Source: a virus. Taken from it: a DNA stretch of 64,000 nucleotides. The notes under the pieces were generated by a model that was not told the origin of the DNA, ran no database searches, and was given only the letters and a program-made list of their open reading frames with translations. The DNA is taken from positions 18,338 to 82,337 of the IMG/VR virus record IMGVR_UViG_3300028490_000005; one strand, given 5' to 3'. Within the stretch, counting starts at the first letter, position 1, and each line of letters begins with the position of its first letter. A program made the position numbers and the translations under genes. Positions 1 to 54,446 of this stretch are shown piece after piece.

Positions 1-70
1 AGAAAGATTCAAAGAAGAACCAGATTCTAAGAAGTTTTCGAGTAAAAATACAATGTTGGAGTGGTTTTGA
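1..70 (+). CDS. 3' end of an upstream gene (...KKFSSKNTMLEWF*), truncated by the window edge
   Basis: Open frame from position 2 to TGA at 68-70, overlapping the start of the next gene; not in the ORF track. Confidence 0.6.
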   Translation, partial: ERFKEEPDSKKFSSKNTMLEWF

Positions 71-2163
71 TATTTAAAATAATTAATGAAAGTGATATAT
101 TGGGTGCAATGATCCCAAATGATTATAAAAAAGATAGTTTTGCTAGAACTGTAATTAGTAAGTGCAACACATATGATTTATGGGATAAAACCTATGGATA
201 TTATGTCGGTGATGAGTTGGTTGGAATTATGATAACTACATTTACAAAGAGAAATCCAATAACTGCTAATTTACAAATTCTATTCACATATTATAGGTAT
301 AGAGGAAACGGTTATGCCAAAGCAATGGTTTTAGAAACTATCCGACAAGCACATGAATATGGTTGTGAATACTATAGGGTGTCATCAGAAGCTAGTGCAG
401 TAGAATTCTATGAAAAAATTGGCTTTAAATTTTTCTGTAAACAAAAAAGTGGGACACAGTTAAGTATTTTTAAAGTTAATAATAGTATAATAGAGGATAA
501 AGATTTTATCCGAGATGAAAATATGGATAAAATGTATTTCAGAAAAGGTAAAGGTGGTTGTGTGGAAATTTTAGGTGAATATAAAAAAGAGGATTTATCT
601 TTCGGTACGGAATTGGAATTTTCGAATATACCGAAGAGTAAAGAGGTTCCCAAAGAGTTGGGAAAATGGGAATATTCTGAACTTGATGTTGTAAATACTA
701 AGGGTGAATATGCATTTAAGTGTGCAGACCCTCGAGGTACAGAAGTTCCAGTCGGTGGGGAAATTAATACAATTCCATCAAAAAACTTTGTTGATCAAGT
801 TGATAAAATTATGAATATCATAAAATATTTTAAGGAAGATGATGTTGATGTTGGATTAACCGCACACACTCATTTACACGTACATATAGATGGTATCGAA
901 GATGATCCGGAAGCATTAGCAAGGTTAGTGAATTATATCTACGATAATCAGGAAACTACCTTGCGAGAATGTTATGCGTTCAATGAAGATATAATTCCAA
1001 AGGAAAAAAGGTTTTCAAAAATTAAAAGGTATCTGAAATTTGATGGTGGGAGACCTTTACCTGAATGGTTCAAGGATAACGCAGTTGATAATGTTGACAC
1101 ATTCGACGGCTTCTTAGACGCTATTGGTTGGGGGATTAAAAAAGAACCAATTAGATATCAACGGTATCACATTAATTTACATGCTTTGAAAAATTCAAAG
1201 ACAATAGAATTCAGGTGTTTCAGGGGATCTTTGGACGAAACTGAGTATTTGGATATGTTTGCATTTGTTCAGGAGTTTATCCTTAATGGGTTGAACGGTG
1301 GTGACTCTGTTCAGGAAATATTAAACAAACGAGACTATAAATTTCCTCGGATGCAATTTAACGAAGATCAGGCGATTGGTTGGCAAGATACGAAATATGA
1401 TTCAAATAGATGTGGTAAGAAGAATAGAGAATATTGGCAAGCAGATAAAGCTTCTGAAAAAATATATGAAATGAAGAAAAAGGAGAAAATTATGGGAAAT
1501 TTACATTTAATAAATTATATGGGTGCAAACGGTGTCGGGAAGTCTACTAGAACTTTTCATTTAGTGGATTACATGAAAAATACCATGGATTTTACTGAAT
1601 TCAAATATGGCATTACACGTAAAGGTAATGATGAAAAGGAAGAAACTATCGGGTTGTTATTTGAAAATGGTTGGTTAGTTCTTGGTAAATTTTCTAAAGA
1701 GAATACTCAATGGGTTTCACTTGATTCAGCCATTTTAAGCAAGTGGGAACATCGTATTGCCTTCATAGAAGACATGTCCAAAAGGGGTGAAATTAAGGTA
1801 GTGTTCATGGAAGGGTATTTCAATAACAGAAGTCGCCAATCATCCCCTGAGAATTTAAAGGCTCACGGGGTTTCCAAAGTGGAAATTCTAACTTCATATT
1901 ATAATGATATATCAGAATTTATTGACAGAACTAATGGTAGAACTGGAAAGAATAGAGGGATGGAATGGGCTGAACAATCTCCTGGATGGAATGATAATAA
2001 ATTATTCGACAAACTATACAATGAATTTATAGAAGAGGTTAATGAGTCTGCTATAGTCGAAAGAATTGATATAAACTCACCCCGTGACACATTGGTCAAT
2101 AGGTTTTTTGATAAGAGTTATGTCAAGAAAGAAGAAGTAAATGTAATGGATGAATGGTTGTAA
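61..2163 (+). CDS. Three-domain fusion: GNAT acetyltransferase + amidoligase (COOH-NH2 ligase) + P-loop nucleotide/DNA kinase; probable DNA-modification enzyme
   Basis: GNAT motifs YRGNGYA and FYEKIGF; amidoligase motifs FGTELEF, GGEINT, HLHVH, TIEFRCFRGS; Walker A GANGVGKST followed by VLGKF and VFMEG. True start may be TTG at 67. Confidence 0.8.
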   Translation: MVLIFKIINESDILGAMIPNDYKKDSFARTVISKCNTYDLWDKTYGYYVGDELVGIMITTFTKRNPITANLQILFTYYRYRGNGYAKAMVLETIRQAHEYGCEYYRVSSEASAVEFYEKIGFKFFCKQKSGTQLSIFKVNNSIIEDKDFIRDENMDKMYFRKGKGGCVEILGEYKKEDLSFGTELEFSNIPKSKEVPKELGKWEYSELDVVNTKGEYAFKCADPRGTEVPVGGEINTIPSKNFVDQVDKIMNIIKYFKEDDVDVGLTAHTHLHVHIDGIEDDPEALARLVNYIYDNQETTLRECYAFNEDIIPKEKRFSKIKRYLKFDGGRPLPEWFKDNAVDNVDTFDGFLDAIGWGIKKEPIRYQRYHINLHALKNSKTIEFRCFRGSLDETEYLDMFAFVQEFILNGLNGGDSVQEILNKRDYKFPRMQFNEDQAIGWQDTKYDSNRCGKKNREYWQADKASEKIYEMKKKEKIMGNLHLINYMGANGVGKSTRTFHLVDYMKNTMDFTEFKYGITRKGNDEKEETIGLLFENGWLVLGKFSKENTQWVSLDSAILSKWEHRIAFIEDMSKRGEIKVVFMEGYFNNRSRQSSPENLKAHGVSKVEILTSYYNDISEFIDRTNGRTGKNRGMEWAEQSPGWNDNKLFDKLYNEFIEEVNESAIVERIDINSPRDTLVNRFFDKSYVKKEEVNVMDEWL

Positions 2164-2738
2164 TGGATATATTTGATCTACTGAGAACTGAAGTAATTGT
2201 ACACGACGACGAAATTTCAGAACATGTTGCATTCAAGGTAAAAGAAATTCAGGGTAACAACCAAACATTTGGTCGTGACCAAATGACAATGGAAAACCAT
2301 GTGAAAAGTGGTTCAATTCTCGAGATAGGGCTTGCTAAGTTAATTGATGGAGTTGTTAATCCAAATCTATTCGATTCAAGTGATCCTGAAAGCTTTGCTT
2401 GGGATGTTGAAAAAGGTGGTGTTAGGTTTGAAGTCAAATCATCACCAAAGGCAGATTCTTGGTTTAATTTTAATCTCCATGGTGTTGAGAATAGTTCTAA
2501 TGAAACACTAACCAGAGTTAATTTAACAACTTTTCTGAAATATTCATCATATTCTAATTTCATTATCGCTGGGTATTATACTGAAAGTGGTAGTGGTTAT
2601 GTTGTGAAGTTTAAGTGGTTGATGAAATCACTCACATTTCAAAATTATGTTAAAAAGTCTAGAGCTTCTGGAAAGGGGACTACTAATTATTATGATATCG
2701 TCAGTTCGAAGAGAAATTTGGATTGTTTCGAACTTTAA
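2154..2738 (+). CDS. denB: DenB (T4 endonuclease IV)-like PD-(D/E)xK nuclease
   Basis: DPESFAWDVEKGGVRFEVKS resembles the T4 DenB segment DPYTYAWDV...LRVEVKT as recalled; similar length; likely start ATG 2163. Confidence 0.7.
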   Translation: MVVMDIFDLLRTEVIVHDDEISEHVAFKVKEIQGNNQTFGRDQMTMENHVKSGSILEIGLAKLIDGVVNPNLFDSSDPESFAWDVEKGGVRFEVKSSPKADSWFNFNLHGVENSSNETLTRVNLTTFLKYSSYSNFIIAGYYTESGSGYVVKFKWLMKSLTFQNYVKKSRASGKGTTNYYDIVSSKRNLDCFEL

Positions 2739-2791
2739 GATTGTTTTAAGTTAAATTACGCTATAATATACGAAATAAAGAAGGGTAAATT

Positions 2792-3949
2792 ATGATAAGA
2801 GAACTAGACGCAAAATCCGAGAAAAATAAGAAAAGATTAATAAAGTTACTCAATGACGATATTGTATTGGTTGCCGATGAAAATAAAATTTGTAGGTTGA
2901 GAACTAAGGATTTAGAATGTGTTGATGGTGAAATTTCCACAGCTGAATTCCATAAACAAAAATCACATGATATTTTTATTAATGAATCACTTTGGTACAT
3001 ATACTTCATCAATAAAGACAAAAAAGAATTTGGTATTAAATTCAACAGCCAATCAGACGCAGTTTCCTTTTGGTATAAAGAAGTATTCAATGTAGATGAT
3101 GCGACTTTTGTGACTGTAGTTGCTACAGAGACAGCTAATGAAGAGAGAGTGAAAATAGTTTTGGAAAACAACAAATCATATTCATTCACTGAAAGATTGA
3201 TGTCAAATAGTGGTGAAGAAGCTAGAGCATATAAATTCTATTCACATAAATTGGATGAGTACGCTATAATTTCGAAAGATAATTTAAAAGATAATTGTGA
3301 GACATTGGATTTAGATGATCATTTACCAGCTGAATATCTATTTTGTGTGGAATATGAAAGAATTTTTAACATAAGCCTTGATTATAGAAATATCATCTCA
3401 CTTGAATATGTCAATAAAGATGGTCAAAAATTGGCTACTTTTAAGGACGGTTCTTCATATAAATATAACCAGTCTCAATTACATCGAAATAATAACTTTC
3501 CAATTATGTCATATATGAATTTTGGCTCAGAAGAATTTAAATCTCTTGTTTGTAGAATTACTGGACATAGATTTTTCAATGACAGTAAAATCCTAAAACA
3601 TCAAAATTATTCTGCTAAATTTAGTGCTGATTTTCACCACATGTTAGTTATTGATGGTGCAAGCGTACATAAGATTAGTAAAGAACCTTCTGCACTATTA
3701 AACGGTAAAATGAATGACCAAATATTCTTTGAATTGTTGTTTTGTACTATGATTTCTGGTTACGCTCATAAAGATTACCATTCAAAAGCTAGGAATATGA
3801 AGTTAAGTGATTACTATGAAGAACATTTACCGTTACACGTAGTGAGTGAGAGCCACTACTACATTACTCATAAGAAATATGGATTTGTACCGAGACTTAC
3901 TTGGCACGAGTTTAGACAAGCATTGGAAGGGGTATTAACAATTGATTAA
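2792..3949 (+). CDS. Hypothetical protein
   Basis: 385-aa ORF with its own promoter (TATAAT 2762-2767); no recognised motif. Confidence 0.6.
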   Translation: MIRELDAKSEKNKKRLIKLLNDDIVLVADENKICRLRTKDLECVDGEISTAEFHKQKSHDIFINESLWYIYFINKDKKEFGIKFNSQSDAVSFWYKEVFNVDDATFVTVVATETANEERVKIVLENNKSYSFTERLMSNSGEEARAYKFYSHKLDEYAIISKDNLKDNCETLDLDDHLPAEYLFCVEYERIFNISLDYRNIISLEYVNKDGQKLATFKDGSSYKYNQSQLHRNNNFPIMSYMNFGSEEFKSLVCRITGHRFFNDSKILKHQNYSAKFSADFHHMLVIDGASVHKISKEPSALLNGKMNDQIFFELLFCTMISGYAHKDYHSKARNMKLSDYYEEHLPLHVVSESHYYITHKKYGFVPRLTWHEFRQALEGVLTID

Positions 3950-4201
3950 TTTACTTGGGCAAAAGGATTGGGGTGTTGGATACATAAAGCAATGTAGGAA
4001 TGATCAAGTGAAGGTGGAAATCGAAGATTACATAAACAAATTGTCATCTGGGTTTAAATATGATTATGATATATCTGATATACAAATACATAAGATTAAC
4101 GATTCTATGTATTGTTCAGTTTGGTTTTCATATTCTAGAACCAAATAATTAAGTCTCCTTTAAGGTTTTACAGATATAATAAAACAAAAAGGAGACTATG
4201 T

Positions 4202-5311
4202 TTGAAACCAACATTAATAAACGGAAAAAGTATAAATGAGGTCGTATTCAATTCACTGGATAGACTTATTCATAACGGATACCGAACAAAATCAAGAAAC
4301 GGTGATATTAACACCGTGTATAACGCATTTGTCACTCTAGACAATCCCAAGGCAAGACACCTTTCATTAGAAGGGCGTAAAAACAACATATTCGCAACAA
4401 TAGCCGAGACTTTCTGGGTATTCGCTGGTTCTAATGATATAGACCCTTATTTGAGCTTCTTTCTACCAAGAGCTAAAGACTTTTCAGATGACGGTAAAAC
4501 ATGGCGTGGTGGTTATCCTGAGCGTATTTTCGCGAATGAACAAATCGACGATGTCATTGAACAATTTAGAAACGAGGGTATTCATACCAGACGAGCAGTT
4601 ATGGTAATTTCAGACCCAAGCCTTGATACAAGGGTGGCACTTGATAAGGTGTATGGACTTGAAACAACTAAAGATAGACCATGCAATATGATTATTGACT
4701 TCTTTATTACACCAGACAAACGATTACACATGAACGTGAAATCAAGATCAGGTGATGTAATTTGGGGATTTGGATCAATTAATATTTTTGAATGGACTTT
4801 CCTTCAAGAAATGATTTTAGGTTATATCCAAGATGAAATTGACCCTGATGTAACACTCGGAGAATACAACCATCACGTGACGAATTTACACCTTTATGAC
4901 TTCAATGGCTCACAAGGTTACGATGTAGTAAGAAATAAGCTTGAACAGAAGTTAGGGTTAAATGCTGATGACAAAATTGAATTCCCAGTTATTGAAGAAG
5001 TACATGAGTTCTTTAAAGAACTTGTAAATATGTATAGTAAATGTATCACCTCTCCGGAGTTACCAGATTTTGGTAGAGATATACTTGATATGAACTTCAT
5101 TTTCGATAAATATAGAGTTCCTCAAACAGATAATATCTTGTATGAATATGCTTGTTTGGTTTTAGCGTATATTATGCAAAAACGCCATAAGTTAGCAGAA
5201 GAAGATTTCTTCCTCTTAATAGACCTCAAAGCATCTGACGAATTCTTCCATTGTATAGAAAGTTCACCGTTCAAGAAGTTTGAAATTGAAAGAGTAACGG
5301 GGAATCATTAA
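4202..5311 (+). CDS. Thymidylate-synthase-family enzyme, probably dUMP hydroxymethylase
   Basis: Catalytic PC (DRPCN), RSGDVIWG..IN..EW, YNHHVTNLHLY; Asn at the specificity position points to dUMP; WG-x-x-x-IN pattern typical of phage hydroxymethylases; TTG start with AGGAG. Confidence 0.8.
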   Translation: MKPTLINGKSINEVVFNSLDRLIHNGYRTKSRNGDINTVYNAFVTLDNPKARHLSLEGRKNNIFATIAETFWVFAGSNDIDPYLSFFLPRAKDFSDDGKTWRGGYPERIFANEQIDDVIEQFRNEGIHTRRAVMVISDPSLDTRVALDKVYGLETTKDRPCNMIIDFFITPDKRLHMNVKSRSGDVIWGFGSINIFEWTFLQEMILGYIQDEIDPDVTLGEYNHHVTNLHLYDFNGSQGYDVVRNKLEQKLGLNADDKIEFPVIEEVHEFFKELVNMYSKCITSPELPDFGRDILDMNFIFDKYRVPQTDNILYEYACLVLAYIMQKRHKLAEEDFFLLIDLKASDEFFHCIESSPFKKFEIERVTGNH

Positions 5312-5526
5312 TGGAAATTTATGAAATCACAATTAATGATGAAGTTTTTGTTAGTATGGATACGGATTACGAAGGCACAATCGATACTGTAATTCTTGAG
5401 AATAATCTATATGGTAAGAATAAATTCCTAAGAAAAGAATTCTTTCATAGATTTACTGAAGATGGACCAGAAAAAATAACACGGATAGAAATGTCTAAAA
5501 TTTTAATTCACAGTGAGGATAATTAG

Positions 5527-6348
5527 ATGACAAGTTGGGAAATGATTGAACGAAACGCAAAAGAAGTTAGAGAGAACGGGTATTATATTCAAAGAGGTAT
5601 GCTTTCAAATTTAGATATTGAATGTATCCTTGACGTAACAATTCCTGCAATAGCTAATAATTATACAGAAGAATATGTAGAAAAGCGTTTGTATAGAAAA
5701 CGCGAGAATACTGAAGGGAGACAAGGCGATGCTGTATTAATGTCTATTGGTACACCAGATACAGCACCATTCATGTCGCTAGATGATAGATTCCCTTGTA
5801 TTGGTGGGTTGTACTTAAGTTACGTGAACACATTAAGTCAACTCCTTTATGGTGATTTTAGACTTGAAGATAATACAAAAGTTCTTGTAAATTATCAACA
5901 ATACAAAGAAGGGGCAAGTAATTCTTTACCTTTCCACTTTGACGCTGAGATTTTCAAGGGTGATTGGAACAAAGACTACATTAAGCTTGAAGAAGGGCTT
6001 ATCCCTAGAATGGTAATGGTGGTTGTGCTTGAAAATGAAAATGATGGTAAGGGCTTACAAATCATGACACCAAAGGGTGACATCATTGATTTAGACCTTG
6101 TTCCTGGAGACATTTTATATTTCGATAATACGGCTGTTCTACATGGTGTACCAGATGATCTTGATAAAAAGCGTACAATGATTGGTTTCAGAAGTTTTGA
6201 AACTGAACCACTTTTATTCAATAAACTTGGGTTTATGGATGGAACGGGTGTTATTGAGATTGATACACCATATGTCAAGGGTGAAGCGATTGAACTTACT
6301 ACTGAAAACGCAAAAGAAGAACTAATAAGAGAAGGATGGTATTATTAA
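5527..6348 (+). CDS. 2OG-Fe(II) dioxygenase superfamily protein
   Basis: HxD (PFHFD), distal H (VLHGV) and R (KRTMIGFR) in the spacing of a double-stranded beta-helix. Confidence 0.75.
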   Translation: MTSWEMIERNAKEVRENGYYIQRGMLSNLDIECILDVTIPAIANNYTEEYVEKRLYRKRENTEGRQGDAVLMSIGTPDTAPFMSLDDRFPCIGGLYLSYVNTLSQLLYGDFRLEDNTKVLVNYQQYKEGASNSLPFHFDAEIFKGDWNKDYIKLEEGLIPRMVMVVVLENENDGKGLQIMTPKGDIIDLDLVPGDILYFDNTAVLHGVPDDLDKKRTMIGFRSFETEPLLFNKLGFMDGTGVIEIDTPYVKGEAIELTTENAKEELIREGWYY

Positions 6349-6530
6349 TGAAAAAGTATAAATATTCAAAGTTGGTAGAGAAGGACATTGTTAAGAGATG
6401 TCCTTCTTGTGAGGGTTCTGGGCGTTGGTATGGTCATGGAGCATTCGGTGAACCAGAAAGTGATACGTGTGGCAGATGTCGTGGTGAAGGTGTTATATTA
6501 AATTGGGATAATATTAATCGGGAAAAATGA
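6336..6530 (+). CDS. Small DnaJ-type zinc-finger protein
   Basis: Two CxxCxGxG motifs (CPSCEGSG, CGRCRGEG). Confidence 0.65.
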   Translation: MVLLMKKYKYSKLVEKDIVKRCPSCEGSGRWYGHGAFGEPESDTCGRCRGEGVILNWDNINREK

Positions 6531-6735
6531 TGATTGAAATTAATGATGTGAGACAACTTGACCAATTAAAAATCGGTGCTGATTTTAAGCTAGTCAGTGG
6601 GTTGAATATCCTCATCACCGATACGGGAATGAATTTAATCTTCATAGAAACTGAACATCTAACCATAAAGGCGTTCCCACTTGGGGAAGGCATGTATAGA
6701 TTTAAAGATAAACAAATAAACATTTAGGAAAAATA

Positions 6736-7278
6736 ATGATAAATATAAATTTTTTTGGTGGACCTGGAACGGGAAAATCAACAACATCAACTGGAGTTTT
6801 CCATGCTATGAAAAAAGAAGGGTATAGTGTCGAATACGTTTCGGAATATGCTAAAGACCTTGTTTACAGTAAAGATTATTTCAAACTCAAAGATCAATTA
6901 ATGATTTTGGCTAACCAATCTCATCCTTGGTTCAAATTAGAAGAACAAGTGGACTTTACTATTAATGATGGACCATTTCTTCTTGGGTTAGTATATTTAC
7001 AAGACAACCCGCATATGCCAACTGAAGAGTTTAAAGCGTTCTTGGTAGCGATGTGGAATTCATATACCCACATTAACATATTCATTGAAAGAGACGTAGA
7101 AGCTCACGGTTATCAAGAATATGGGCGTGGTCAAACATTAGCAGAAGCTGTTGAAAAAGATAACGAAATCAAACAAATCCTTTATGATAACAATATACCG
7201 TTCTTTTCAGTTGTGATGGGTGATGACACGGTTCAATATGCTCTTGATATTATTAAAGATTTGAAAAGGGGTAAATAA
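6736..7278 (+). CDS. P-loop kinase/ATPase (AAA_28/NadR-kinase-like)
   Basis: NFFGGPGTGKST Walker A, EYAKD, YQEYGRGQT. Confidence 0.75.
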   Translation: MININFFGGPGTGKSTTSTGVFHAMKKEGYSVEYVSEYAKDLVYSKDYFKLKDQLMILANQSHPWFKLEEQVDFTINDGPFLLGLVYLQDNPHMPTEEFKAFLVAMWNSYTHINIFIERDVEAHGYQEYGRGQTLAEAVEKDNEIKQILYDNNIPFFSVVMGDDTVQYALDIIKDLKRGK

Positions 7279-7830
7279 ATGGAAACAATTAAAATAGCGT
7301 TCATGGGTGTCAGTGGTAGTGGTAAAGATTACATTGTAGATGTAGCAAAAAAGAATTTCGAATTCACGAGGTTCAGTTTCTCTGACCAACTAAAGAAATT
7401 GGGTGCTAAAATATACCCATGGTTGGAAAGTGATTATCCACCAGAAGAAAAGGAAAAGTCACTTAATATTAAGATTCCTGAGACTGGTGAAGTAATTACT
7501 AAATCACCAAGGGAAATTTGGCTAGAACTTAATAAAATGAGAAATGTAGAAGATAACTTATTTGTCAGGATGTTGGCTCATGAAATTTGGTTGACACAAG
7601 TTGACCGTCTAGTAATATCTGATATTAGAACGCAAAATGAATATGATTGGTGTGTGGAAAATGATTTTACTATCATCGCCATAAAAGGGGATGCCAAACA
7701 CCCTGAAAACTCATTTGATGACTGGGTTAGAGACATGATAGACATGGGTGAATATGATTTTGAATTTACTAATGAATTTGATGGTCATGAAAAGATTGAG
7801 ACTTTCTTTACAAGTTGCTTCGACCTTTAA
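7279..7830 (+). CDS. Deoxynucleoside monophosphate kinase (T4 gp1-like)
   Basis: GVSGSGKD, FSDQLK, SPREIW, VISDIRTQNE. Confidence 0.8.
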   Translation: METIKIAFMGVSGSGKDYIVDVAKKNFEFTRFSFSDQLKKLGAKIYPWLESDYPPEEKEKSLNIKIPETGEVITKSPREIWLELNKMRNVEDNLFVRMLAHEIWLTQVDRLVISDIRTQNEYDWCVENDFTIIAIKGDAKHPENSFDDWVRDMIDMGEYDFEFTNEFDGHEKIETFFTSCFDL

Positions 7831-7885
7831 GCAAGGTTTAAGTTACATTACGGTATAATAGAGTATAAAGTTTGAAAGGCTTAAA
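7826..7885 (+). promoter_or_regulatory. Early promoter + RBS repeat (type copy)
   Basis: TTTAAGCAAGGTTTAAGTTACATTACGGTATAATAGAGTATAAAGTTTGAAAGGCTTAAA then ATG. Confidence 0.85.
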
Positions 7886-9311
7886 ATGGAAATATTAAAT
7901 TTTATTTTACTGTTTGTTACAGTAACTTACGGTATCGTGTATGGAGTTAGAAATTGGGCATTAGGATTTATTGGTTTATTTGGAAGTGGTACTAGACAAA
8001 GCACTTTAGGTAATATTCTAGATGGTCTTTTTATGACAGCAGTTCTTTACTTCTTGACATACGGTAAAACGTTTATAGCAACTGTAATAGCAGGAGCTTA
8101 GTATGAATTCTAACCAAACCATATCAGAACTTATAGATACAGTGATTTGTGGGAATAAAATTGCTGGAGATGTAACTTATACAAAAATGGCAAACTCTGT
8201 CACATTTAAAGAAATCAAACAATATTGTGACGAATACGAATATAATCTTGTTGGTTCATATTGGGCTCCAAGGGGTGACCATCAAATATACCCTAAACAA
8301 ATGGGTACTGGGAACACAATCAGTAAATTGGATTTTTTCGATAAAATAATTAAACAATCTTTTTAAGCAAGGTTTAAGCGAAGTTACGGTATAATAGAGT
8401 ATATTAAAAGTTTGAAAGGCTTAAAATGGTTTACACAGAATTAAAGTTTGTTAGATTGATGGAAGAATTAGATGCAATGAGAGATGAAATGTCAGATTTG
8501 GGTGGTGAGTTCAACTCAATTGAAGATAGAGATGCAGATTACGAAACACATGATGAAGAGGGAGATATTCTACCTGATAGTTTTGACCGTTTAGAAGAAA
8601 TTGAAATTTTAATCGAAATTCTAGAAGCTAAAGAAACTGATATTGCTAAACAACTTGGTGTTACGGCAATGGTTCTCGAAACACATTTCGACTCTTGTAT
8701 CACCAATAGATGGGAAATTTACGCTCAAGTAATGAGTGCAGATATTGTTCCAATTCACACCACTAAAAATAGAAAGGTTTAAAATGAAATTATCAGTAAA
8801 ATTAGACATTGTAACAATAGTTTACAAACCAACCAACGCAGAAATTTTTAAGTGTGTTCAGTTCAACCAAAGTGAAGATGACACTATCTCAAATATTCCA
8901 AATAAAATTGATCACAACTTTACACCATCCCCTGAACATTTAGAGGAACTTGAGCAAAGTATGGTGATGTATGACGGTGAGCTAAATATCGAAGGGTACG
9001 AAGATCTATATAGGTTTTTGAGTAATGTCGAAGGGCACGATTTCTTTGATGTAAATTATTCTTCTCAAACTGTGGAGTTTTAAGCAAGGTTTAAGCTATA
9101 TTAGGGTATAATAGTATATAAAATATAAAGGCTTAAAATGGACATAGATCTTACAGACGGAAAACGTTTATTTATAGACACTAAAGGGCTTGGAGAAATC
9201 TTAATTAAAGAAACTTCAAAAGGCTTAGAAATCTCTGCTACCAACGCTTCAATTTTAATTAAGCCACGTGGAGAAAACGCAATCACCATTATCAATCAGG
9301 AGATAGAATGA
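7886..9311 (+). other. Cluster of small early hypothetical genes (7886, 8103, 8426 very acidic, ~8784, and an untracked 57-aa ORF 9138-9311)
   Basis: ORFs at 7886, 8426 and 9138 each follow a copy of the promoter/RBS repeat. Confidence 0.6.
8362..8425 (+). promoter_or_regulatory. Early promoter + RBS repeat
   Basis: Near-identical to 7826. Confidence 0.85.
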
Positions 9312-10204
9312 AATCAAAATTTGAAACATTAGGTGATAGACTCAAAGACTATGAAGCTCAATATGAATATTATATTTGGTCAGATAAACATATTGTAGTA
9401 CGAATTGACGGGCACAAGTTCTCAAAGTATACTAAGGGGTTCAAGCGACCATTTGACGAAATTCTTTCAAAAGCTATGGAACAAACGACTATTGATTTGG
9501 TTCAAGAGTTTCAAGCCGTTGTAGGATATACACAAAGCGATGAAATTACATTAGTAATTCCTTCACCGAAGCCTAAAAAAGTTCATTACAACAAGTTACC
9601 TTCACAAGATTTGAAGCACACGTATTCAGGTAGAATTCAGAAGATTGCTTCATTAACTGCGGGGTTCGCTACTATGGCGTTCAACAGACATTTATTATCT
9701 CTTTACAAAGAACAAAAAATATTAGAGAAGGATTTAGATCAAACTCACGGAATAGAATACAGAAGGGAATTTGGGAAATATATGAATACTATTGAGGGCA
9801 AACTTGGCAAGGCTTGGTTTGATTCCCGTGTTTACGCTGTACCAAACGACGTAGAAGCGTTCAACTCTGTTCTATGGCGAGTTAGGGATGCAGAAAAGAA
9901 CAGCCGTTCAATGTTCGCTCAGGCTCATTGTAGTCACAAGGCACTTCAAAACATGTCTGGTAGAGAGCAAGTAGATTTCTGTAAGGAAACGACGGGTGAA
10001 GATTGGGATCTTGTTGATGATAGATATAAGTACGGAATTCTCGTAAAGAAAGAGAAGTACATGAAAGCTGTTGATTTCGACCAAAATGATACAGTGTATG
10101 AAGGTCCAGAAGAAGTTGAAAGAACTCGGTTGGTTTCATTTAGTAAACATCTAGTATTCAGCGAAGAAAACGTTGAATTGATTATGAGTAAGTATAAAGG
10201 ATAA
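9308..10204 (+). CDS. thg1: tRNA-His guanylyltransferase Thg1-like 3'-5' polymerase
   Basis: RIDGHKFSKYT, YTQSDEIT, GRIQK, FDSRV, WRVRDAEKNS. Confidence 0.93.
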   Translation: MKSKFETLGDRLKDYEAQYEYYIWSDKHIVVRIDGHKFSKYTKGFKRPFDEILSKAMEQTTIDLVQEFQAVVGYTQSDEITLVIPSPKPKKVHYNKLPSQDLKHTYSGRIQKIASLTAGFATMAFNRHLLSLYKEQKILEKDLDQTHGIEYRREFGKYMNTIEGKLGKAWFDSRVYAVPNDVEAFNSVLWRVRDAEKNSRSMFAQAHCSHKALQNMSGREQVDFCKETTGEDWDLVDDRYKYGILVKKEKYMKAVDFDQNDTVYEGPEEVERTRLVSFSKHLVFSEENVELIMSKYKG

Positions 10205-10611
10205 ATGTGAATTATATTACACAGAAGATTAAAGATTATTTTACAAAAGAAAACGCTACTAAGGTCTTAGAAGTTGGTGTAGACGGAGCGACAGAAGTTG
10301 CCCATGGTTTTCTTAATGGGATTTTAATGAAGATAGTTTTTACGGTATTCGTAATAATTTTACTCATTGGTGGTGGCTGTGTAGGTACAAATATGGCAAT
10401 AGATGCTGTAACAACTAAAGGATAATTATGGAATTCTTAAATGCACATTCATCTACTTGGTGGATTAAAGATATGGCAGTTTCGGAGTTGTTTACACATG
10501 TATATGAACCAATCAACCCTTTCTACCACAACAGTGGGGAAATAGTTCCATCAAACACAAAACGCGTAAATCTTAGAAAGAAACGAAAATTAAAGAATAA
10601 AAGGAAATAAC

Positions 10612-11646
10612 ATGACACCAAAATTAATTAAAATGCCATCAATTGCACAATTCAATCAAGTAATTAAAGATATCCAACATGATGCTAGATATGCTGGTCA
10701 GGACGTAAATGATGAGCCAATATATAACAGAAATGCAAAACTGCCAACGGTTATATTTTTCGGTTCAGTTAAGCTGCATGGAACAAATGCATCAATTTGT
10801 TATGATGGTGAAAACCTTTGGGCACAATCTAAGGGTAGTGTTTTAACCATCGAAAGCGATAATTATGGTTTTGCGTCATTTGTTGAAATGAACAAAGAAT
10901 ATTTGACAAGTGAACTTAAGATTATGCGTGACACATTTAATCTTCAAAAGGTTTGTGTGTATGGTGAGTGGGCTGGTAAGGGTATCCAAAAGGGTGTAGC
11001 AATTTCTGAAATCAATAAAACCTTCTTTGCATTTGGTATTAAATTTCTACGATTAAATTCAGAAGTGTTTGAGTGGGTGCAAAAACCATCAGTTGTCTTA
11101 AAGCACTTCAGTGACGGTAACAGAATTCGCTCAATATTCGAATTTGATACATATTACGTTGAAATTGATATCAATAACCCAAAAGCTATGCAAAACGACA
11201 TGATTAAAATCACTGATGGAATTGATAAAATGTGTCCAGTAGCTCGTGATCTTGGTCATATTGGTCATGGTGAAGGCGTTGTTTGGGTTGGTTGGTATAA
11301 TGACAATAAGTACAACTTTAAGATCAAAGGACTAAGTCATGCAAATTCTAATGTTAAGACACTAAAGCCAGTTGATGAAGAAAAGGAAAATGCTAAAATT
11401 GCTTTCGCTAACTATGCTACACCAGCATGGAGACTAGAGCAAATGTACAAAGAAACATTCGGTGAAGGTCAAGGTGATATCAAGAGAACGGGGGAATTCC
11501 TTAAAGCTGTTGTATCTGATGTTATGAAGGAAGAGCTACTGAATATGTCAGAAGCTAACCTTGAGCCAAAAGAAGTTAATGGTATGATTTCTAAAATTGC
11601 TAGAACTTGGTTCATGGAGCAGTTAGATAGAGAGGTTCTTGGATGA
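10612..11646 (+). CDS. RNA ligase (Rnl2-like nucleotidyltransferase)
   Basis: Motif I KLHGTN, YGEWAG, GEGVVW, FKIKG. Confidence 0.8.
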   Translation: MTPKLIKMPSIAQFNQVIKDIQHDARYAGQDVNDEPIYNRNAKLPTVIFFGSVKLHGTNASICYDGENLWAQSKGSVLTIESDNYGFASFVEMNKEYLTSELKIMRDTFNLQKVCVYGEWAGKGIQKGVAISEINKTFFAFGIKFLRLNSEVFEWVQKPSVVLKHFSDGNRIRSIFEFDTYYVEIDINNPKAMQNDMIKITDGIDKMCPVARDLGHIGHGEGVVWVGWYNDNKYNFKIKGLSHANSNVKTLKPVDEEKENAKIAFANYATPAWRLEQMYKETFGEGQGDIKRTGEFLKAVVSDVMKEELLNMSEANLEPKEVNGMISKIARTWFMEQLDREVLG

Positions 11647-13669
11647 GCCTTGCCCAAACTAGATTAGACATAACTCATAATAGAGTTGTCACTGAAAAAT
11701 ACCAAACGATGTTACGAAAAGCTGATGACTACATACAAGCCCATTTACTTGATATCGATGAGGTTGAAAAGAGAAAAATCCTAGTATGTGATCATATTAG
11801 GAAAACGAGAATAAAATTTGTAAATTGGACAGACGAACAGATATTAGACAGATTTGAGAAACTTAATGAAAAACATGAACGGGAAGAGGAATTAGTATGA
11901 TTAAAATTACGAATAAAGTTAAAAAACACGTGAAAAAGAACCCAACGTCTCAGTATCAGTTAATTGTAACTTTCGACGATGGAGACGATATACTACATAT
12001 GGGTCTAACACCAGAATTGCTAGAAAAATTAACATCAGCTTATGATGCTTTCAGAGAGAGATTAGATGCTGATTGGAATAAATGGTGTAACCCAGAATCT
12101 TATCAAATTAAAGAACTATTTGAAGAATTTGGCGTAATTGAAGAAGATGAGGATGAATATGATTTTCTTGAATTAGAATATTGGTCATGGAGTAATGAAT
12201 ATCCTGACCCTATGGCAAGAGTTGATGGTTATACTATCACGTATTGGGATGAAAATGGTATAGAATGGAATACGGAGGTACAAAAATAATGGACACAAGA
12301 AACGCATTAGGTCAACCAATTAATGTTGGTGACTGGTTAGGGCATTCAAATAGGACGGCTGGGGTTGTAGAGGTTACAACTGGGCAAGTCAAAGAAATTA
12401 ATGACGGTAAAGTTGTATTGGAAAACGTGCATAGAGGGAGAGCTTCTTATGAAGATGTGATCTCACAAATTAAAGTAAAACGCTCAGTTGTTACTCTAGT
12501 TGCGAATTCACTTTTCCCAATACAATCAGTAATTATGTGGGATGGTATTATTCAAGATGTTTAAATTTATTTGTGAGGGTGGACACGTTTATAGTCAAAA
12601 TGATATGGACGAACATTACATTTCACCCACTGCTGTTGGTGAACTTTATGGTATTAGACCAGCTAAGTGTATTTGGAAAAAGAGACATATATACTCAGAA
12701 ACTGGAGCAAGTGAAACAATTTACCTCACGCCAGACAGTAGTGGTAAATATGATTTAGTGGATGAAGTTGTACGCCAAATTAATCAACGTATTATACCGA
12801 AGGTGTTAAATAGACAAATTACATCTATTGAAAACTTCTCATTCTTCCAAAGACTGAAATTCCTATTCACTTCGAGATTAGTTTAATGGATTGCACTGAA
12901 TATAAATTCGACTATTGGAAACGCATAGTCATTAAGGATATCATCGGTGCTGAATATAGATGGTATGTTAATGTAGAAGACGTTTTCCAAGGGGTTGATA
13001 TTAACCGTTGTGACGATTGTTTGGTTGAAGGCTATGTTTCAATCAGTATTGTTTTTAATATGCAAGATATGAGTACACATGAACTTGATTGTACTCTACA
13101 GTCCATGGGATTGAAAAAGTTAAATTTTACGGATTTAGACCTGATGGGTGAACTAATTACCACTGAGAGTGGCTTCTTGTGTGAGCATTGTAATGATATA
13201 TTAGAAGAGTTTGATATATTGGATTTAAGTCAATAATAAGGTTACGACGCTATAATAAGTTATGGATATATTTAAAGAACTGGAACTCGCAGAATCAGAG
13301 TTGAACACATTAGATCACATTGATATTTGGTTTCACCGAACTTTCGGTGGGTTCATTGACTTCTTCAGGTATGATTTACCACAAGGGATTAAAAACTTCT
13401 GGTATTATAGGAAAGTAATATGGAGACACCGTTGGTATGACTATGGTTTTGCCGATGACGTTGTTCGTAGGTTGTATGAAGATAGGTCTGAAAATTGGCA
13501 CAAGAGCCACTATGTAGGATTTGAAAAAGATGCTTTACAACTTGACATAATCGTAGAACTTTTTAAAAGACTAGAAGATGCCGAATTCTTGACAGTAGAA
13601 GATGACCCTGAAGATAAAATCAGAAAAGAAATTTACAGAAGAATAGCGAGGAAACGATATTGGGATTAA
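11643..13669 (+). other. Run of hypothetical genes (11643, 11897 acidic, ~12289, ~12557, 12886, 13262)
   Basis: Tightly packed and overlapping + strand ORFs. Confidence 0.55.
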
Positions 13670-14061
13670 TAGAAAAATTGTTTGATAAATACAATGAGTT
13701 TATAAAATTTGAAACCATTGATATTGAAGATAGGCTCAGACGACACACCGAAATCTTGGGCTTCTATCAATCAACATTTTACACCATGAAACAAAAACAT
13801 ACTAAATATTCATTTGAATTGGATAGACAATGGCAAGAAAAATACCTCTACTATAAAAACGAATTCAATATAGTCTTAAACAACAATGAAATTAAGTCCT
13901 TTATTGAAAAGGACTTAGAATATTTAGAAATTAAGAGAAAACTTCAAGAAGTGACTGACATTTTAGAACAAATAGAATTAATCCTGAAAGGGTTGGATTC
14001 AATGAGATGGACTATAAAATCTATAATTGATTGGGAAAAATTTAAGGCTGGTCAGTTCTAA
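13660..14061 (+). CDS. uvsY: Recombination mediator UvsY-like
   Basis: Helical 133-aa protein ending WTIKSIIDWEKFKAG, typical of the UvsY C-terminus; near uvsW. Confidence 0.72.
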   Translation: MGLIEKLFDKYNEFIKFETIDIEDRLRRHTEILGFYQSTFYTMKQKHTKYSFELDRQWQEKYLYYKNEFNIVLNNNEIKSFIEKDLEYLEIKRKLQEVTDILEQIELILKGLDSMRWTIKSIIDWEKFKAGQF

Positions 14062-14071
14062 TTAAATAACT
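14062..14071 (+). promoter_or_regulatory. T4-like late promoter TTAAATAACT
   Basis: Same 10-mer at 25229, 61298 and 22207-22216 (minus strand); related to the T4 late promoter TATAAATA. Confidence 0.65.
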
Positions 14072-14090
14072 AAAACAACTAGGAGTTTTA

Positions 14091-14330
14091 ATGTTAAAAC
14101 AAATCATAGAAAAAATTACAAATGAAGTTATGTGCCCAGAAGCTAGATCTTTTGCATCTAAATTGGCAAAGAAGAGTGGTATGGTAACTATTAAGTGTAA
14201 AAAGACTGGGGATGAATTTGAAGTTGATTCAGATGCGAGCATTTTAGGTGGTTGGGTTTCAGCCAAAGGCAGTGATGGTAAATCAACTGATATAGATCTT
14301 TGTGGTAATAAAGATTATAAATTCGCATAA
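14091..14330 (+). CDS. Small protein with MLKQIIE leader; putative internal head protein
   Basis: Leader shared with neighbours; late promoter; AGGAG RBS. Confidence 0.55.
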   Translation: MLKQIIEKITNEVMCPEARSFASKLAKKSGMVTIKCKKTGDEFEVDSDASILGGWVSAKGSDGKSTDIDLCGNKDYKFA

Positions 14331-14339
14331 GGTATTGTA

Positions 14340-14600
14340 ATGTTAAAAGAAATCTTAGAAAAATCAAATGAAGTGAAAGATAAGAAAGCTTACGAAAAGA
14401 TTTATAAAGACATCATTGAATACATGGAAGAAGTGATTGCATATAGAGAAAAGATGAAATCTCGTGGTGATAAATTGGATGAATTATATAAAGAACAAAC
14501 TGGGAAGTCTATTTTGTTCCAAAGTCTCTATAATGGTAGTGTTATCACTAAAGATGATATTGATAATTTGAAAAAATTATCTAAGAAGAGGTTATCGTAA
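14340..14600 (+). CDS. Small protein with MLKEILE leader; putative internal head protein
   Basis: Shared leader. Confidence 0.55.
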   Translation: MLKEILEKSNEVKDKKAYEKIYKDIIEYMEEVIAYREKMKSRGDKLDELYKEQTGKSILFQSLYNGSVITKDDIDNLKKLSKKRLS

Positions 14601-14791
14601 TGTTAAGAGAAATAGTAGAAGCCATTTCTTACGGTAACGTTAAGCAAAGACACGGGGCGTATATCTTTCATTTTGATGGAGATACAATTACTATGGTAGA
14701 TAAAGCTGGTAAGGTGATGGGCACTAAAAAATCCCCTTCTTTAGCATCAGTCCATACTAAAGCTATGACAAAAGAATTTGGTGGTAAGTAA
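14600..14791 (+). CDS. Small protein with MLREIVE leader; putative internal head protein
   Basis: Shared leader, TAATG coupling. Confidence 0.55.
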   Translation: MLREIVEAISYGNVKQRHGAYIFHFDGDTITMVDKAGKVMGTKKSPSLASVHTKAMTKEFGGK

Positions 14792-14973
14792 TGTTAAGAG
14801 AAATAGTAGAGGGTGCAGACTGGGGTGAAGATGCTGAATTAACATTTTCAAAAATCATGAAGATAGTTGATGACATTAATTCTAAGATAAGTTCTGCTAA
14901 ATTAGACGCAAGAACTTACCAAACACTAGAAAAAGCTAAACAAGAGCTTGAGAAAGCGTTAAGGAGAATGTAA
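14791..14973 (+). CDS. Small protein with MLREIVE leader; putative internal head protein
   Basis: Shared leader; 5' 20 nt identical to those of 14600. Confidence 0.55.
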   Translation: MLREIVEGADWGEDAELTFSKIMKIVDDINSKISSAKLDARTYQTLEKAKQELEKALRRM

Positions 14974-15272
14974 TGATTAGAGAAATAGTAGAAGGGTTGG
15001 GATTAGCTTCTGGTTCTAATTATTCGTACTTGAGTGGGAATAAAGATAACCGTCCAACTGGGATTTTAGTTCACACAAAAAGTGAGCGTGGTTCAATAAA
15101 GATCGCGTCAGAAGTAGAGAAAAGAGGACTTAAGTCTGAAATTCGTGACGGTAAGAAACAAATTGAAATATACGCAAGTCATTATAGTGATGAGGAAAAA
15201 TCTTATTTATCTAATATCATCGCTGGAGATGAATTAGATAAATTAATTAAAAAGATAGAAATATTAAACTAA
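14973..15272 (+). CDS. Small protein with MIREIVE leader; putative internal head protein
   Basis: Shared leader, TAATG coupling. Confidence 0.55.
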   Translation: MIREIVEGLGLASGSNYSYLSGNKDNRPTGILVHTKSERGSIKIASEVEKRGLKSEIRDGKKQIEIYASHYSDEEKSYLSNIIAGDELDKLIKKIEILN

Positions 15273-15346
15273 AAATTCAAGGAGAATGTAATGAGAGATA
15301 TAGTATTTTGTGGTGAAGAAATCTTAAAAGAAGGAGGAGACGCATA

Positions 15347-15562
15347 ATGTTAAAAGAAATTATAGAAAAAATCGAAGAAAAAGATATGATCAATCTTGGT
15401 GATTTTGAAAACCAAAAACATAAGAAATTGATTGATGAAGATTCAGATTATCAAAAATTCTTTCAGAAAAAGCTTAAGTCTTGGGGTGTAAAATCACCAG
15501 CTGAACTTGATAAAGAAAAGAGAAAGAAATTCTTTACTGAAATCGAAAAGGATTGGAAGTAA
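15347..15562 (+). CDS. Small protein with MLKEIIE leader and YQKFF...GVKSPAEL...KKFF...W motif (head/core-associated type)
   Basis: Shared leader; strong RBS AAGGAGGAG. Confidence 0.55.
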   Translation: MLKEIIEKIEEKDMINLGDFENQKHKKLIDEDSDYQKFFQKKLKSWGVKSPAELDKEKRKKFFTEIEKDWK

Positions 15563-15563
15563 A

Positions 15564-15857
15564 GTGTTAAGAGAAATTTTAGAGGAGCTTGAAATTGATG
15601 AGCTTAAGGGAAATATTGACCCAAAGGCTAAGAAACATGCTAAGATAGTTTCAAAAGCTAGAGCGAAAGTAAAATGCTCCGGAAATAATACTCCCTCTAA
15701 AATTAAAGACACTGGGACATCTGTTCGTTTCAAGTGTACTCCCAAAGACAAAACAAAGGCTAGAAAGATGGTAAAGGTTAGGAAGAAATTCAATAAGACC
15801 TCTGCAGGAAAGAAAGCCGTGAAAGTATCAAAACTTACAAAGAAATTTAGAAAATAG
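15564..15857 (+). CDS. Very basic protein with (M)LREILE leader, possibly prohead core (gp68-like)
   Basis: GTG at 15564 restores the shared leader (the track starts at 15507); Lys/Arg-rich with a Cys pair. Confidence 0.5.
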   Translation: MLREILEELEIDELKGNIDPKAKKHAKIVSKARAKVKCSGNNTPSKIKDTGTSVRFKCTPKDKTKARKMVKVRKKFNKTSAGKKAVKVSKLTKKFRK

Positions 15858-54137: not shown

Positions 54138-54446
54138 TGGGTTGGCTACTGTACGTCATTGGATTCATAATAGTATTCACTTTAGTATATGTTTGGAACA
54201 TAGCAAATGCACAAAGCGTCTCAGGTAATTCAGATAATATTGTTTCCTTACCATGGGGATTATTTTTAAGTCTCATGAGTTGGGGTTCAATAGTATTTTT
54301 CCTAGTCGTGATTGTGATAGGGTCTACCATATATTTCTTCACCGAAACGGAGTGGGTTCAATCTCTAAATGATAAATTCACTGGTGTTAAAGAGAAAAAA
54401 GTACCAACTCCTCCATCAGGAAGAACTGGTCCATAAAGGAACAAAA

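Follow-up and report, generated by a model that had tools for sequence, protein, structure and literature searches.

What does a large virus do to its DNA when a single block of its genes holds a thymidylate synthase (TS) homolog, nucleotide kinases, a DNA kinase fused to two tailoring domains, an oxygenase and a nuclease? This question was raised by the beginning of a window of 64,000 nucleotides, the whole stretch analysed here, which corresponds to bases 18338-82337 (plus strand) of a linear 82,337-bp IMG/VR viral contig. An earlier reading of the letters alone, called the sequence-only reading below, had taken the block for a pathway that makes 5-hydroxymethyldeoxyuridine (5hmdU) DNA and tailors it by amide ligation, possibly glutamylation, by acetylation and by hydroxylation, and it expected a transferase upstream of the window. 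We found such a gene, for an amino acid:DNA transferase (AADT; clade 2 aGPT-Pplase), reaching into the window from upstream and coupled to a gene for a class II glutamine amidotransferase (GATase). A four-stage explanation, in which an AADT fed by glutamine is followed by N-acylation, has in our estimate a probability of about one half. The genes concerned are given below; contig coordinates, which are also those of the 18.3 kb upstream of the window (L003), equal window coordinates plus 18337.

Contig 12086-13264: 392-aa "HMUDK_hel" protein, similar to gp160 of phage ViI
Contig 14917-15594: dimeric dUTPase/nucleoside triphosphate pyrophosphatase (NTP-PPase) of the dUTPase_2 family
Contig 16202-16774: NT5C nucleotidase
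Contig 16774-17415: class II GATase of 213 aa (GATase_6)
Contig 17415-18407: AADT (PF18724); the 3' end of the gene occupies window 1-70 on the plus strand, with the stop at position 70
Window 61-2163, plus strand: GNAT-amidoligase-HMUD2 fusion of 700 aa (Pfam, PHROG)
Window 2154-2738, plus strand: DenB-like DNA endonuclease (phrog_1360, E 8e-11)
Window 2792-3949, plus strand: HNH-like near-orphan of 385 aa (fold-level matches)
Window 4202-5311, plus strand: TS-family enzyme of 369 aa, predicted dUMP hydroxymethylase (phrog_3676, E 1e-85)
Window 5311-5526, plus strand: conserved 71-aa protein (orthologs in contigs L005 and L006)
Window 5527-6348, plus strand: 2-oxoglutarate (2OG)-Fe(II) oxygenase of 273 aa (motif, AlphaFold2 (AF2) model, Foldseek)
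Window 6736-7278, plus strand: P-loop kinase of 180 aa (AAA_28; phrog_2107, a 'thymidylate kinase' PHROG)
Window 7279-7830, plus strand: dNMP kinase, T4 gp1-like (phrog_139, E 6e-28)

Every gene named in the sequence-only reading was present in its place, as one of a contiguous run of open reading frames (ORFs) on the plus strand; the 385-aa and 71-aa proteins had not been named there. Two other phage contigs, L005 (140 kb) and L006 (110 kb), carry orthologs of the block at 50-70% identity and in unchanged order, and the genes are therefore more than chance ORFs. The contig is ~53% complete by CheckV, so that the genome is probably ~155 kb; its G+C content is 33-34%, and nearly all genes are on the plus strand. 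Window 1-8000 gave no megablast match among 50,697 phage records, which means that this is not a cultured lineage. The phage is thus a large, uncultured one.

The first step was examined with the TS homolog. Its match to phrog_160 reached an E value of only 4.5e-20, far from that to phrog_3676. In an alignment with E. coli ThyA, T4 gp42, ViI gp66, SPO1-type gp29, the SP10 dUMP hydroxymethylase and an M6-like enzyme, the protein showed the catalytic Cys, an R-S-x-D motif and, as the sequence-only reading had observed, an Asn at the specificity site (equivalent to E. coli N177), where MilA carries the cytosine-specifying Asp. This Cys and the uracil-specifying Asn are common to ThyA and dUMP hydroxymethylases and do not discriminate between them. 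However, the PCH motif and the short C-terminal lid of ThyA were not kept, whereas a 'PCN' motif and a long C-terminal extension (~100 aa, unlike ThyA) were shared with the dUMP hydroxymethylases. The sequence matches in the PDB were solely MilA CMP 5-hydroxymethylases, with no ThyA at E <= 0.001. In the maximum likelihood tree, the protein fell in a clade with its L006 ortholog, the enzyme of Vibrio phage K469 and ViI gp66 (support 93/97), outside which both E. coli ThyA and T4 gp42 were placed; the deeper branches were poorly resolved. It was 34-37% identical to the ViI-type enzyme. Furthermore, all 669 phage records matched by tblastn came from the ViI-like, SPO1-like, SP10 and M6-like groups, all of which make, or are predicted to make, 5hmdU. 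Since the TS homolog falls with ViI gp66, and apart from both ThyA and T4 gp42, the objection that it is a canonical ThyA making dTMP fails. Window 4202-5311 is accordingly predicted to encode a dUMP hydroxymethylase making 5-hmdUMP. The L005 ortholog holds an intein with an HNH endonuclease (Intein_splicing, HNH_3; 12835-14907) and is 690 aa long, compared with 369 aa here.

The dNMP kinase of the sequence-only reading was recovered as such and was 30% identical to the dNMP kinase that adjoins the TS gene in Vibrio phage K469. The second P-loop kinase of that reading is present as the 180-aa protein, but it is not a 5-hmdU DNA kinase (5-HMUDK) of the gp67 type: hhalign to the ViI gp67 family covered just the 12-residue P-loop. 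It is probably a nucleotide kinase.

A kinase acting on DNA was expected in the 700-aa fusion, in which Pfam and PHROG domains were found in a single ORF in the order GNAT, Amidoligase_2 and HMUD2, followed by a C-terminal ...MDEWL tail. The joining of a P-loop kinase to amidoligase and GNAT domains, noticed in the sequence-only reading, was thereby confirmed. The GNAT domain covers aa 43-125 (Acetyltransf_10, E 5e-9) and has the CoA motif R-G-N-G-Y-A. Amidoligase_2 (PF12224) is a family of glutamine synthetase (GS)-like carboxylate-amine ligases, to which the region at aa ~180-405 likely belongs by transitive homology: it matches phrog_2443 (E 5e-7), it is 26% identical (E 3e-19) to a stand-alone L005 amidoligase that passes the Pfam model at 39.2 bits, and a member of the fusion family, P0004, carries a precomputed PF12224 annotation. 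E184/E186, E234, H269-H275 and E383/R385 were invariant in the alignment of that family. The HMUD2 domain ('5-hmdU DNA kinase 2', PF18747; aa 483-679) scored 29.7 bits against a cut-off of 25, contains the Walker A motif GANGVGKST and is 26% identical to a ViI-like gp243 ortholog. For ViI gp243, 5-hmdU DNA kinase activity has been demonstrated (PMC8989533). Among 5.8 billion protein clusters, only five other homologs of the triple fusion (P0002-P0006) were found, one of these five relatives being a GNAT-HMUD2 protein without amidoligase. The fusion to a DNA kinase implies that the GNAT and amidoligase domains act on a group borne by DNA. A different kinase fusion was observed in the same lineage: the next gene after the AADT-like one in L006 (8177-9967) encodes a protein of 596 aa with a C-terminal HMUDK_HMUD1 domain (PF18748) and an N-terminal part of ~390 aa to which no domain was assigned.

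The transferase that the sequence-only reading placed upstream of the window was found at contig 17415-18407. It matched PF18724 with an E value of 2e-16 (61.6 bits, above the cut-off), its stop overlaps the start of the fusion gene, and the protein ends ...LEWF. PF18724 matched only once on the contig, so no second AADT/Pplase was found there, and PF18745 (SNAD2) had no match on it. The motif E244-T245-x-x-C248 was invariant across six sequences including ViI-like ones; it matches the Cys and Glu that are essential in M6 gp51 and ViI gp247 (PMC8989533) and E222/T223/C226 of the AADT of phage 15599 (PMC13458397). The enzyme is 27-29% identical to a ViI-like gp247 ortholog and belongs to a distinct marine subfamily with 47-65% identity within it and ~28% to ViI. 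Against solved structures, including PaMx11 gp46 and YuA, it had no sequence match at E <= 1. The 392-aa "HMUDK_hel" protein was also considered as a kinase, but this was ruled out because it has no P-loop; it is a homolog of ViI gp160 (aGPT-Pplase1; 40% identity) and is also homologous to the C-terminal part of SP10 gp186. Two enzymes for thymidine exclusion, the dUTPase_2/NTP-PPase and the NT5C nucleotidase, are encoded upstream of the AADT. Taken together, the TS homolog, the HMUD2 domain and the AADT with its motifs uphold the idea of a 5hmdU-based thymidine hypermodification cluster, and the block very probably encodes a pathway of the ViI type, in which 5hmdU is converted to 5-phosphomethyl-dU (5-PmdU), the substrate of the AADT.

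Which nucleophile does the AADT use? The gene directly before it encodes the GATase, the stop of which overlaps the AADT start. The protein matched GATase_6 (E 1.6e-7; 31.9 bits, cut-off 27), begins with M-C-G-V-I-G and has invariant C2, R80, H102-N103-G104 and D127, which we take from GlmS and PurF to be the Cys nucleophile of the N-terminal nucleophile (Ntn) fold and the glutamine-binding Arg, Asn-Gly and Asp. It is a stand-alone Ntn domain with no fused acceptor domain, and co-occurrence points to the AADT as its probable partner. Searching with an AADT subfamily profile yielded 24 loci from marine metagenomes, many of them on contigs too short to judge the neighbours. GATase was observed in 10 of the 24 and GNAT in 12 or 13, the common arrangement being GATase-GNAT-AADT. 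Genes for HMUD2, the oxygenase and the TS homolog often lay close by, and sensitive hidden Markov models (HMMs) detected an amidoligase in only one locus. A GATase profile, in turn, recovered 16 viral loci, 12 of which had enough downstream DNA to be evaluated. All of these 12 had an AADT, 11 a GNAT and five an amidoligase.

The two acylating modules varied from locus to locus. GNAT occurred without amidoligase in 13 loci and amidoligase without GNAT in L005, L039 and L056, whereas L043, L045 and L048 carry both as separate genes, which rules out a strict either/or. In L051, the GATase is directly followed by the AADT, with neither GNAT nor amidoligase. L005 is syntenic with the contig, but its kinase and amidoligase are separate genes and it has no GNAT; in L006, genes for the TS homolog, oxygenase, kinases, HMUD2 and DenB are retained, but the AADT-like protein is of another sort, and GATase, GNAT and amidoligase are all missing. 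Across the ~40 related loci, GATase-AADT is the invariant unit, and GNAT and amidoligase are optional decorators. Because most loci have no ATP-dependent carboxylate activator that the GATase could serve, the simplest explanation is that it feeds the AADT reaction, for which we put the chance at even or slightly below. Moreover, the invariant pair with its optional modules favours glutamine-derived amination followed by N-acylation. Hence, of the amide ligation or glutamylation and acetylation in the sequence-only reading, the enzymes remain, fused to the kinase, whereas their order and role are better described as N-acylation after amination.

From the observed gene content, motifs, folds, phylogeny and co-occurrence, we infer each chemical step as follows. 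Hydroxymethylation of dUMP would be the work of the TS homolog, and the resulting 5-hmdUMP would move towards the triphosphate through the dNMP kinase, possibly helped by the P-loop kinase of 180 aa, while the dUTPase_2/NTP-PPase and the NT5C nucleotidase would deplete dTTP/dUTP and dTMP. A split family B polymerase would then build 5hmdU DNA, any DNA that still contains T perhaps being removed by the DenB-like nuclease. The HMUD2 domain of the fusion would phosphorylate 5hmdU in DNA to 5-PmdU, from which the AADT, using Cys248, would displace the phosphate via an exocyclic methylene intermediate. The nucleophile is expected to be the nitrogen of glutamine supplied by the adjacent, translationally coupled GATase. 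It may arrive as channelled ammonia or as a gamma-glutamyl amide that the GATase cleaves later; the product would be 5-aminomethyl-dU either way. The ammonia route would be analogous to that of MnmE/MnmG in tRNA and would replace the route of PaMx11 by glycine and an FAD lyase. Finally, the amidoligase (with ATP and a carboxylic or amino acid) and/or the GNAT (with acetyl-CoA) would N-acylate the new amine, as alternative or successive enzymes. In L005, a PanD aspartate 1-decarboxylase (8001-8375, E 1e-47) is encoded directly before the GATase, which hints at beta-alanine as a building block in that phage. The resulting base is rather likely to be an undescribed one.

The oxygenase gave only a weak TauD match in Pfam. 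Nevertheless, H137-x-D139...H206, R216 and R222 were invariant across 15 homologs, and the AF2 model had a pLDDT of 92.6. Foldseek matched it to prolyl 4-hydroxylase (P4H), PHD2 and thymine-7-hydroxylase (T7H) at a probability of 1.00, the top match being 4iw3, the P. putida P4H (E 1e-10). The facial triad, the 2OG-binding Arg and the P4H/PHD-like fold agree with the 2OG-Fe(II) oxygenase of the sequence-only reading. The fold class mostly hydroxylates proteins. The gene was observed within the modification clusters of at least two phage lineages (the source contig, L005 and L006; L007/L018, L031, L037 and L041), and no homologs were found in cultured phages. We give a little over even odds that it takes part in base tailoring, in which it may add a hydroxyl group.

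The DenB-like nuclease, also named in the sequence-only reading, was identified by PHROG alone; it has an ortholog in L006 (43% identity), is absent from L005 and probably degrades unmodified, T-containing DNA. The 71-aa protein lies between the TS homolog and the oxygenase, and its orthologs in L005 (55% identity) and L006 (35%) keep the same position. The 385-aa protein had no match in Pfam, PHROGs, the protein atlas or PDB profiles, and 12 weak matches in 1.8 billion representatives. Its conserved residues, C254, H282-H283, S291, K294, H326 and H330, form a C...HH...H..H pattern. The C-terminal domain (aa ~225-385; AF2 pLDDT ~90) gave weak but recurrent matches (Z 2.8-4.1) to the HNH domains of Cap5, Cas9, retron HNH, ZRANB3 and McrA. 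It is probably an HNH-like (His-Me finger) nuclease or a homing endonuclease and not a tailoring enzyme.

How the modification enzymes might be brought to newly made DNA was suggested by their C-termini. The ending EW[LIMFV] was found in exactly five of the 183 plus-strand ORFs of the contig, compared with 0.07 expected by chance: the C-terminal half of the polymerase, the 5'-3' exonuclease (...MDEWI), the gp160-like protein, the AADT and the fusion. The replication genes that bear on this observation are as follows.

Contig 1601-2962: DnaB-like helicase
Contig 3237-4757 and 7521-8699: family B polymerase, in two genes
Window 19426-20127, plus strand: candidate gp45-like sliding clamp of 233 aa (protein-atlas features)
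Window 20309-21376: gp32-like single-stranded DNA-binding protein (SSB)
Window 21379-22179, minus strand: homing endonuclease (phrog_314)
Window 22486-23580, plus strand: 5'-3' exonuclease of the RNase H/FEN type (PF02739, E 6e-20; phrog_107)

The tails are kept in the L005 and L006 orthologs, in L005 on the stand-alone kinase, and every member of the fusion family ends in [DE]EW[LFM]. They are lacking in the marine AADT loci and in the AADTs of the ViI-like and K469 phages. Since the tail is common to the polymerase and the RNase H-type nuclease, it suggests that the proteins dock on a hub of the replisome, perhaps the clamp, to which the modification enzymes would be tethered; the fusion, the AADT and the gp160-like protein may thus act just behind the replication fork. 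As a lead only, the 233-aa ORF, which lies in the replication module with a helicase gene on one side and the gp32-like SSB gene on the other, is a candidate sliding clamp and a possible docking partner of the tail. Language-model features from the protein atlas placed it at 0.96-0.97 to clusters of gp45-type sliding clamps, whereas BLASTP against T4 gp45 gave an E value of 0.12, and Pfam gp45 models had no match in the contig or in the records holding L005 and L006. Possible but doubtful is the fullest form of the proposal, in which the GATase and the AADT subfamily form a glutamine-dependent DNA aminotransferase converting 5-phosphomethyl-dU to 5-aminomethyl-dU, the replisome-tethered fusion then N-acylates the amine (aminoacyl and/or acetyl, possibly hydroxylated), and the EW tail is a new clamp-docking motif.

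The polymerase itself is split into a gene for the exonuclease and N-terminal part and one for the C-terminal part ending ...MEEWM, with ~2.7 kb and at least six ORFs between them; its C-terminal half is also a separate gene in L006. The homing endonuclease between the SSB and exonuclease genes is the sole large minus-strand gene.

Several other explanations were weighed against this one. The AADT might attach a whole amino acid (Gly, Ser, Glu or Gln), after which a GATase-fed amidoligase would amidate the carboxylate or add a second residue such as glutamate, the GNAT would acetylate the free amine and the oxygenase would hydroxylate the side chain. Indeed, all characterised clade 2 AADTs use a whole amino acid or a diamine (PMC8989533, PMC13458397), and the key papers report no trial of one with ammonia or glutamine. 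In addition, the nearest characterised AADT is of the serine-using ViI gp247 type, and a GATase that releases ammonia makes chemical sense as the companion of a GS-like amidoligase; here, the three genes lie side by side. However, the GATase accompanies the AADT in many loci that are free of amidoligase by sensitive HMMs, L051 among them, and these have no ATP-dependent activator for carboxylate amidation; GNAT and amidoligase are also optional and partly interchangeable modules. We regard attachment of a whole amino acid as unlikely, though deserving of weight. It is improbable that the GATase-like protein is instead an EgtC-like Ntn amidohydrolase that removes gamma-glutamyl groups, either trimming glutamine attached by the AADT or removing a protecting group added by the amidoligase. 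A stand-alone Ntn domain of 213 aa with no fused acceptor would suit such an enzyme, the conserved residues that bind glutamine would accommodate a gamma-glutamyl amide as well, and, going by the Pfam description of Amidoligase_2, the neighbouring GAT-II was reportedly called a thiol peptidase by Iyer et al. in 2009. Yet the trimming of N5-substituted glutamine would also give 5-aminomethyl-dU, so that sequence cannot separate it from glutamine-fed amination, and a protecting group could be added only where there is an amidoligase, which is missing from most loci.

The tailoring enzymes might also have nothing to do with DNA, the GNAT-amidoligase and the oxygenase acting on a protein, a peptide or a small metabolite and the DNA carrying a simple AADT product or plain 5hmdU. 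Peptide tags were the first product predicted for Amidoligase_2 enzymes, proteins are the usual substrates of P4H-like oxygenases, the best structural match here is an EF-Tu prolyl hydroxylase, and related marine loci carry genes for a peptide importer and peptidases. Against this, a single polypeptide with a replisome-type tail joins GNAT and amidoligase covalently to a 5-hmdU DNA kinase domain, GNAT lies between GATase and AADT in many loci, and PaMx11 gp48 provides a precedent for a GNAT acting on DNA (PMC8989533). A role away from DNA is very improbable. Scarcely credible is an ordinary thymidylate synthase in a block of plain nucleotide metabolism with canonical virion DNA. Membership of the TS superfamily and the retained Cys and Asn would agree with it, but the clade with ViI gp66 away from ThyA, the PDB matches to MilA with none to ThyA at the threshold given above and the hydroxymethylase-like 'PCN' motif and C-terminal extension do not; neither do the neighbours, namely the AADT, the 5-hmdU DNA kinase, the gp160-like protein, the dUTPase and the dTMP-type nucleotidase.

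The substrates of the characterised AADTs weigh against the four-stage explanation, and so do the following points. The conserved glutamine-binding residues of the GATase fit a gamma-glutamyl amidohydrolase equally well, and no GATase-AADT fusion proteins were found in a search for longer proteins or in the 16 viral loci, which is a weak negative. The amidoligase domain of the fusion scored 19.2 bits against PF12224, under the Pfam cut-off of 22 bits. No gp67-type 5-HMUDK was found by BLAST of all contig ORFs, about half of the genome, against the K469 and SFP10 loci. The oxygenase is also present in L006, which is without GATase, GNAT and amidoligase, and may serve another purpose; of the hydroxylation step in the sequence-only reading, the presence of the enzyme in modification clusters stands, but its link to this tailoring set is loosened. 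The clamp assignment and the partner of the tail are tentative, and the chemistry proposed for this uncultured phage is as a whole a prediction from sequence.

By sequence and synteny, the nearest described system is that of the Salmonella phage ViI (Kuttervirus), which makes 5-(2-aminoethoxy)methyl-dU (5-NeOmdU) with the TS homolog gp66, the dNMP kinase gp65, the 5-HMUDKs gp67 and gp243, gp160 (aGPT-Pplase1), the serine:DNA transferase gp247 and the pyridoxal phosphate (PLP) decarboxylase gp226 (Lee et al. 2018, 2021). The likeness lies in the TS clade, the gp160 homolog (40% identity), the gp243-type HMUD2 (26%) and the AADT (29%); dNMP kinase, NTP-PPase and NT5C-like genes and the order polymerase-kinase2-AADT are found in both. 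ViI-like and Vibrio Ackermannviridae-like (K469) phages share with the contig the polymerase, gp160-like, NT5C-like, NTP-PPase, HMUD2, AADT, TS homolog and dNMP kinase genes. Unlike ViI, however, the contig has no detected gp67-type kinase, and no PLP decarboxylase or radical SAM enzyme was found in its cluster. Its AADT falls in the separate marine subfamily, and it adds the GATase, GNAT, amidoligase and P4H-like oxygenase, with the kinase fused to two tailoring domains and with EW tails.

In its proposed chemistry, the contig comes nearest to the Pseudomonas phage PaMx11, with a kinase, an AADT, 5-aminomethyl-dU and N-acylation by a DNA-acting GNAT. PaMx11 makes 5-acetylaminomethyl-dU (5-AcNmdU) with the gp49 kinase, the glycine:DNA transferase gp46, the FAD lyase gp47 and the GNAT gp48 (Lee et al. 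2021; PMC11472151); gp47 is a flavin-dependent lyase that converts Nα-glycinylthymidine (N-alpha-GlyT) to 5-aminomethyl-dU (5-NmdU), which the GNAT then acetylates (PMC8989533). By contrast, no FAD-oxidoreductase domain was detected in the ORFs scanned between contig 138 and 26167, which did not include all small ORFs of a contig holding ~53% of the genome, and the GATase beside the AADT would imply direct amination. The contig also has the extra amidoligase and oxygenase, and its AADT has no sequence match to the gp46 structure. A like chemistry, with C5-aminomethyl groups and alternative nitrogen donors, is known from tRNA U34, where MnmE/MnmG form 5-aminomethyluridine (nm5U) by an ammonium route and 5-carboxymethylaminomethyluridine (cmnm5U) by a glycine route (Moukadiri et al. 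2009, cited in PMC8989533), N-alpha-GlyT being the DNA equivalent of cmnm5U (Lee et al., PMC8989533). This is an analogy and not a homology: the enzymes are unrelated, the substrate is RNA, and free ammonium takes the place of a glutamine amidotransferase.

Clusters of the same kind, from the same type of data, have been reported. Lee et al. (2021, NAR, PMC8989533) noted metavirome contigs from IMG/VR and ocean viromes in which 5-HMUDK and aGPT-Pplase2 are paired with amidoligase and glutaminotransferase domains of unknown function. The accessible text of that paper does not describe the GATase-AADT invariance, the triple fusion, the P4H-like oxygenase or the EW tail, and it gives no function, co-occurrence or product; our literature search found no later paper that characterises the enzymes of amidoligase/glutaminotransferase clusters. 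The combination that the sequence-only reading did not recognise is accordingly unmatched in that no described base uses this tailoring set, although the type of cluster had been seen. New here are the GATase-AADT invariance with the amination hypothesis, the triple fusion, the associated P4H-like oxygenase and the replisome-type tail.

Phage DNA with hypermodified thymines is protected against restriction enzymes and, in vitro, also against CRISPR nucleases, and the enzymes that make them are under development as tools for labelling and functionalising DNA. To our knowledge, few pathways have been solved (ViI, M6, PaMx11, SP10, PhiW-14 and SH-Ab 15599), in each of which the first group to be attached is an entire amino acid or a diamine. 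Should the proposal be true, delivery of glutamine nitrogen through GATase-AADT would represent an entry reaction of a new kind, corresponding in DNA to the ammonium route to nm5U in tRNA, and glutamine-dependent amination of 5-phosphomethyl-dU would be a reaction type not described for DNA; with ~40 loci, this type seems to be common in marine viromes. Among ATP-dependent enzymes that form amides, the amidoligase would likewise be the first one shown to work on a DNA base. The triple fusion, in which kinase, ligase and acetyltransferase are joined, is a compact reagent, and the EW tail offers a testable handle on the coupling of post-replicative modification to the replication fork.

Many marine loci of the AADT subfamily also encode an SbmA/BacA-like importer and, adjoining it, a membrane-anchored ClpP/SppA-like peptidase with the motif 'ILESPGGSL' (L007 380-6684; L023, L024, L028, L030, L031, L035, L037, L038 and L050), and L007 carries an M17 aminopeptidase and a C92 amidase as well. 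These may form a module for peptide uptake and breakdown inside a DNA-modification cluster. The protein 'unk261' of the marine loci was considered as a hidden amidoligase, but its membrane helix and ESPGGS-type serine peptidase motif ruled this out.

Further genes were observed among and just upstream of the modification genes on the contig.

Contig 6689-7471: GT11 fucosyltransferase, between the polymerase halves
Contig 9204-11576: GDP-fucose pathway (ManC-type cupin, GDP-mannose 4,6-dehydratase, epimerase/reductase)
Contig 11567-12085: hydrolase
Contig 14277-14693: SLOG protein

The GDP-fucose pathway is present in L005 (238-2884) and absent from L006. The fucose might be destined for a virion protein, for the surface of the cell or even for DNA. 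Elsewhere in the window, a Thg1-like tRNA-His guanylyltransferase (9308-10204; phrog_4717, E 7e-58) and an RNA ligase (10612-11646; phrog_548) are probably a tRNA repair pair, and a nicotinamide phosphoribosyltransferase (52692-54137, E 1e-133) and an NMNAT/cytidylyltransferase-like protein (54369-55157) form a phage NAD+ salvage pair.

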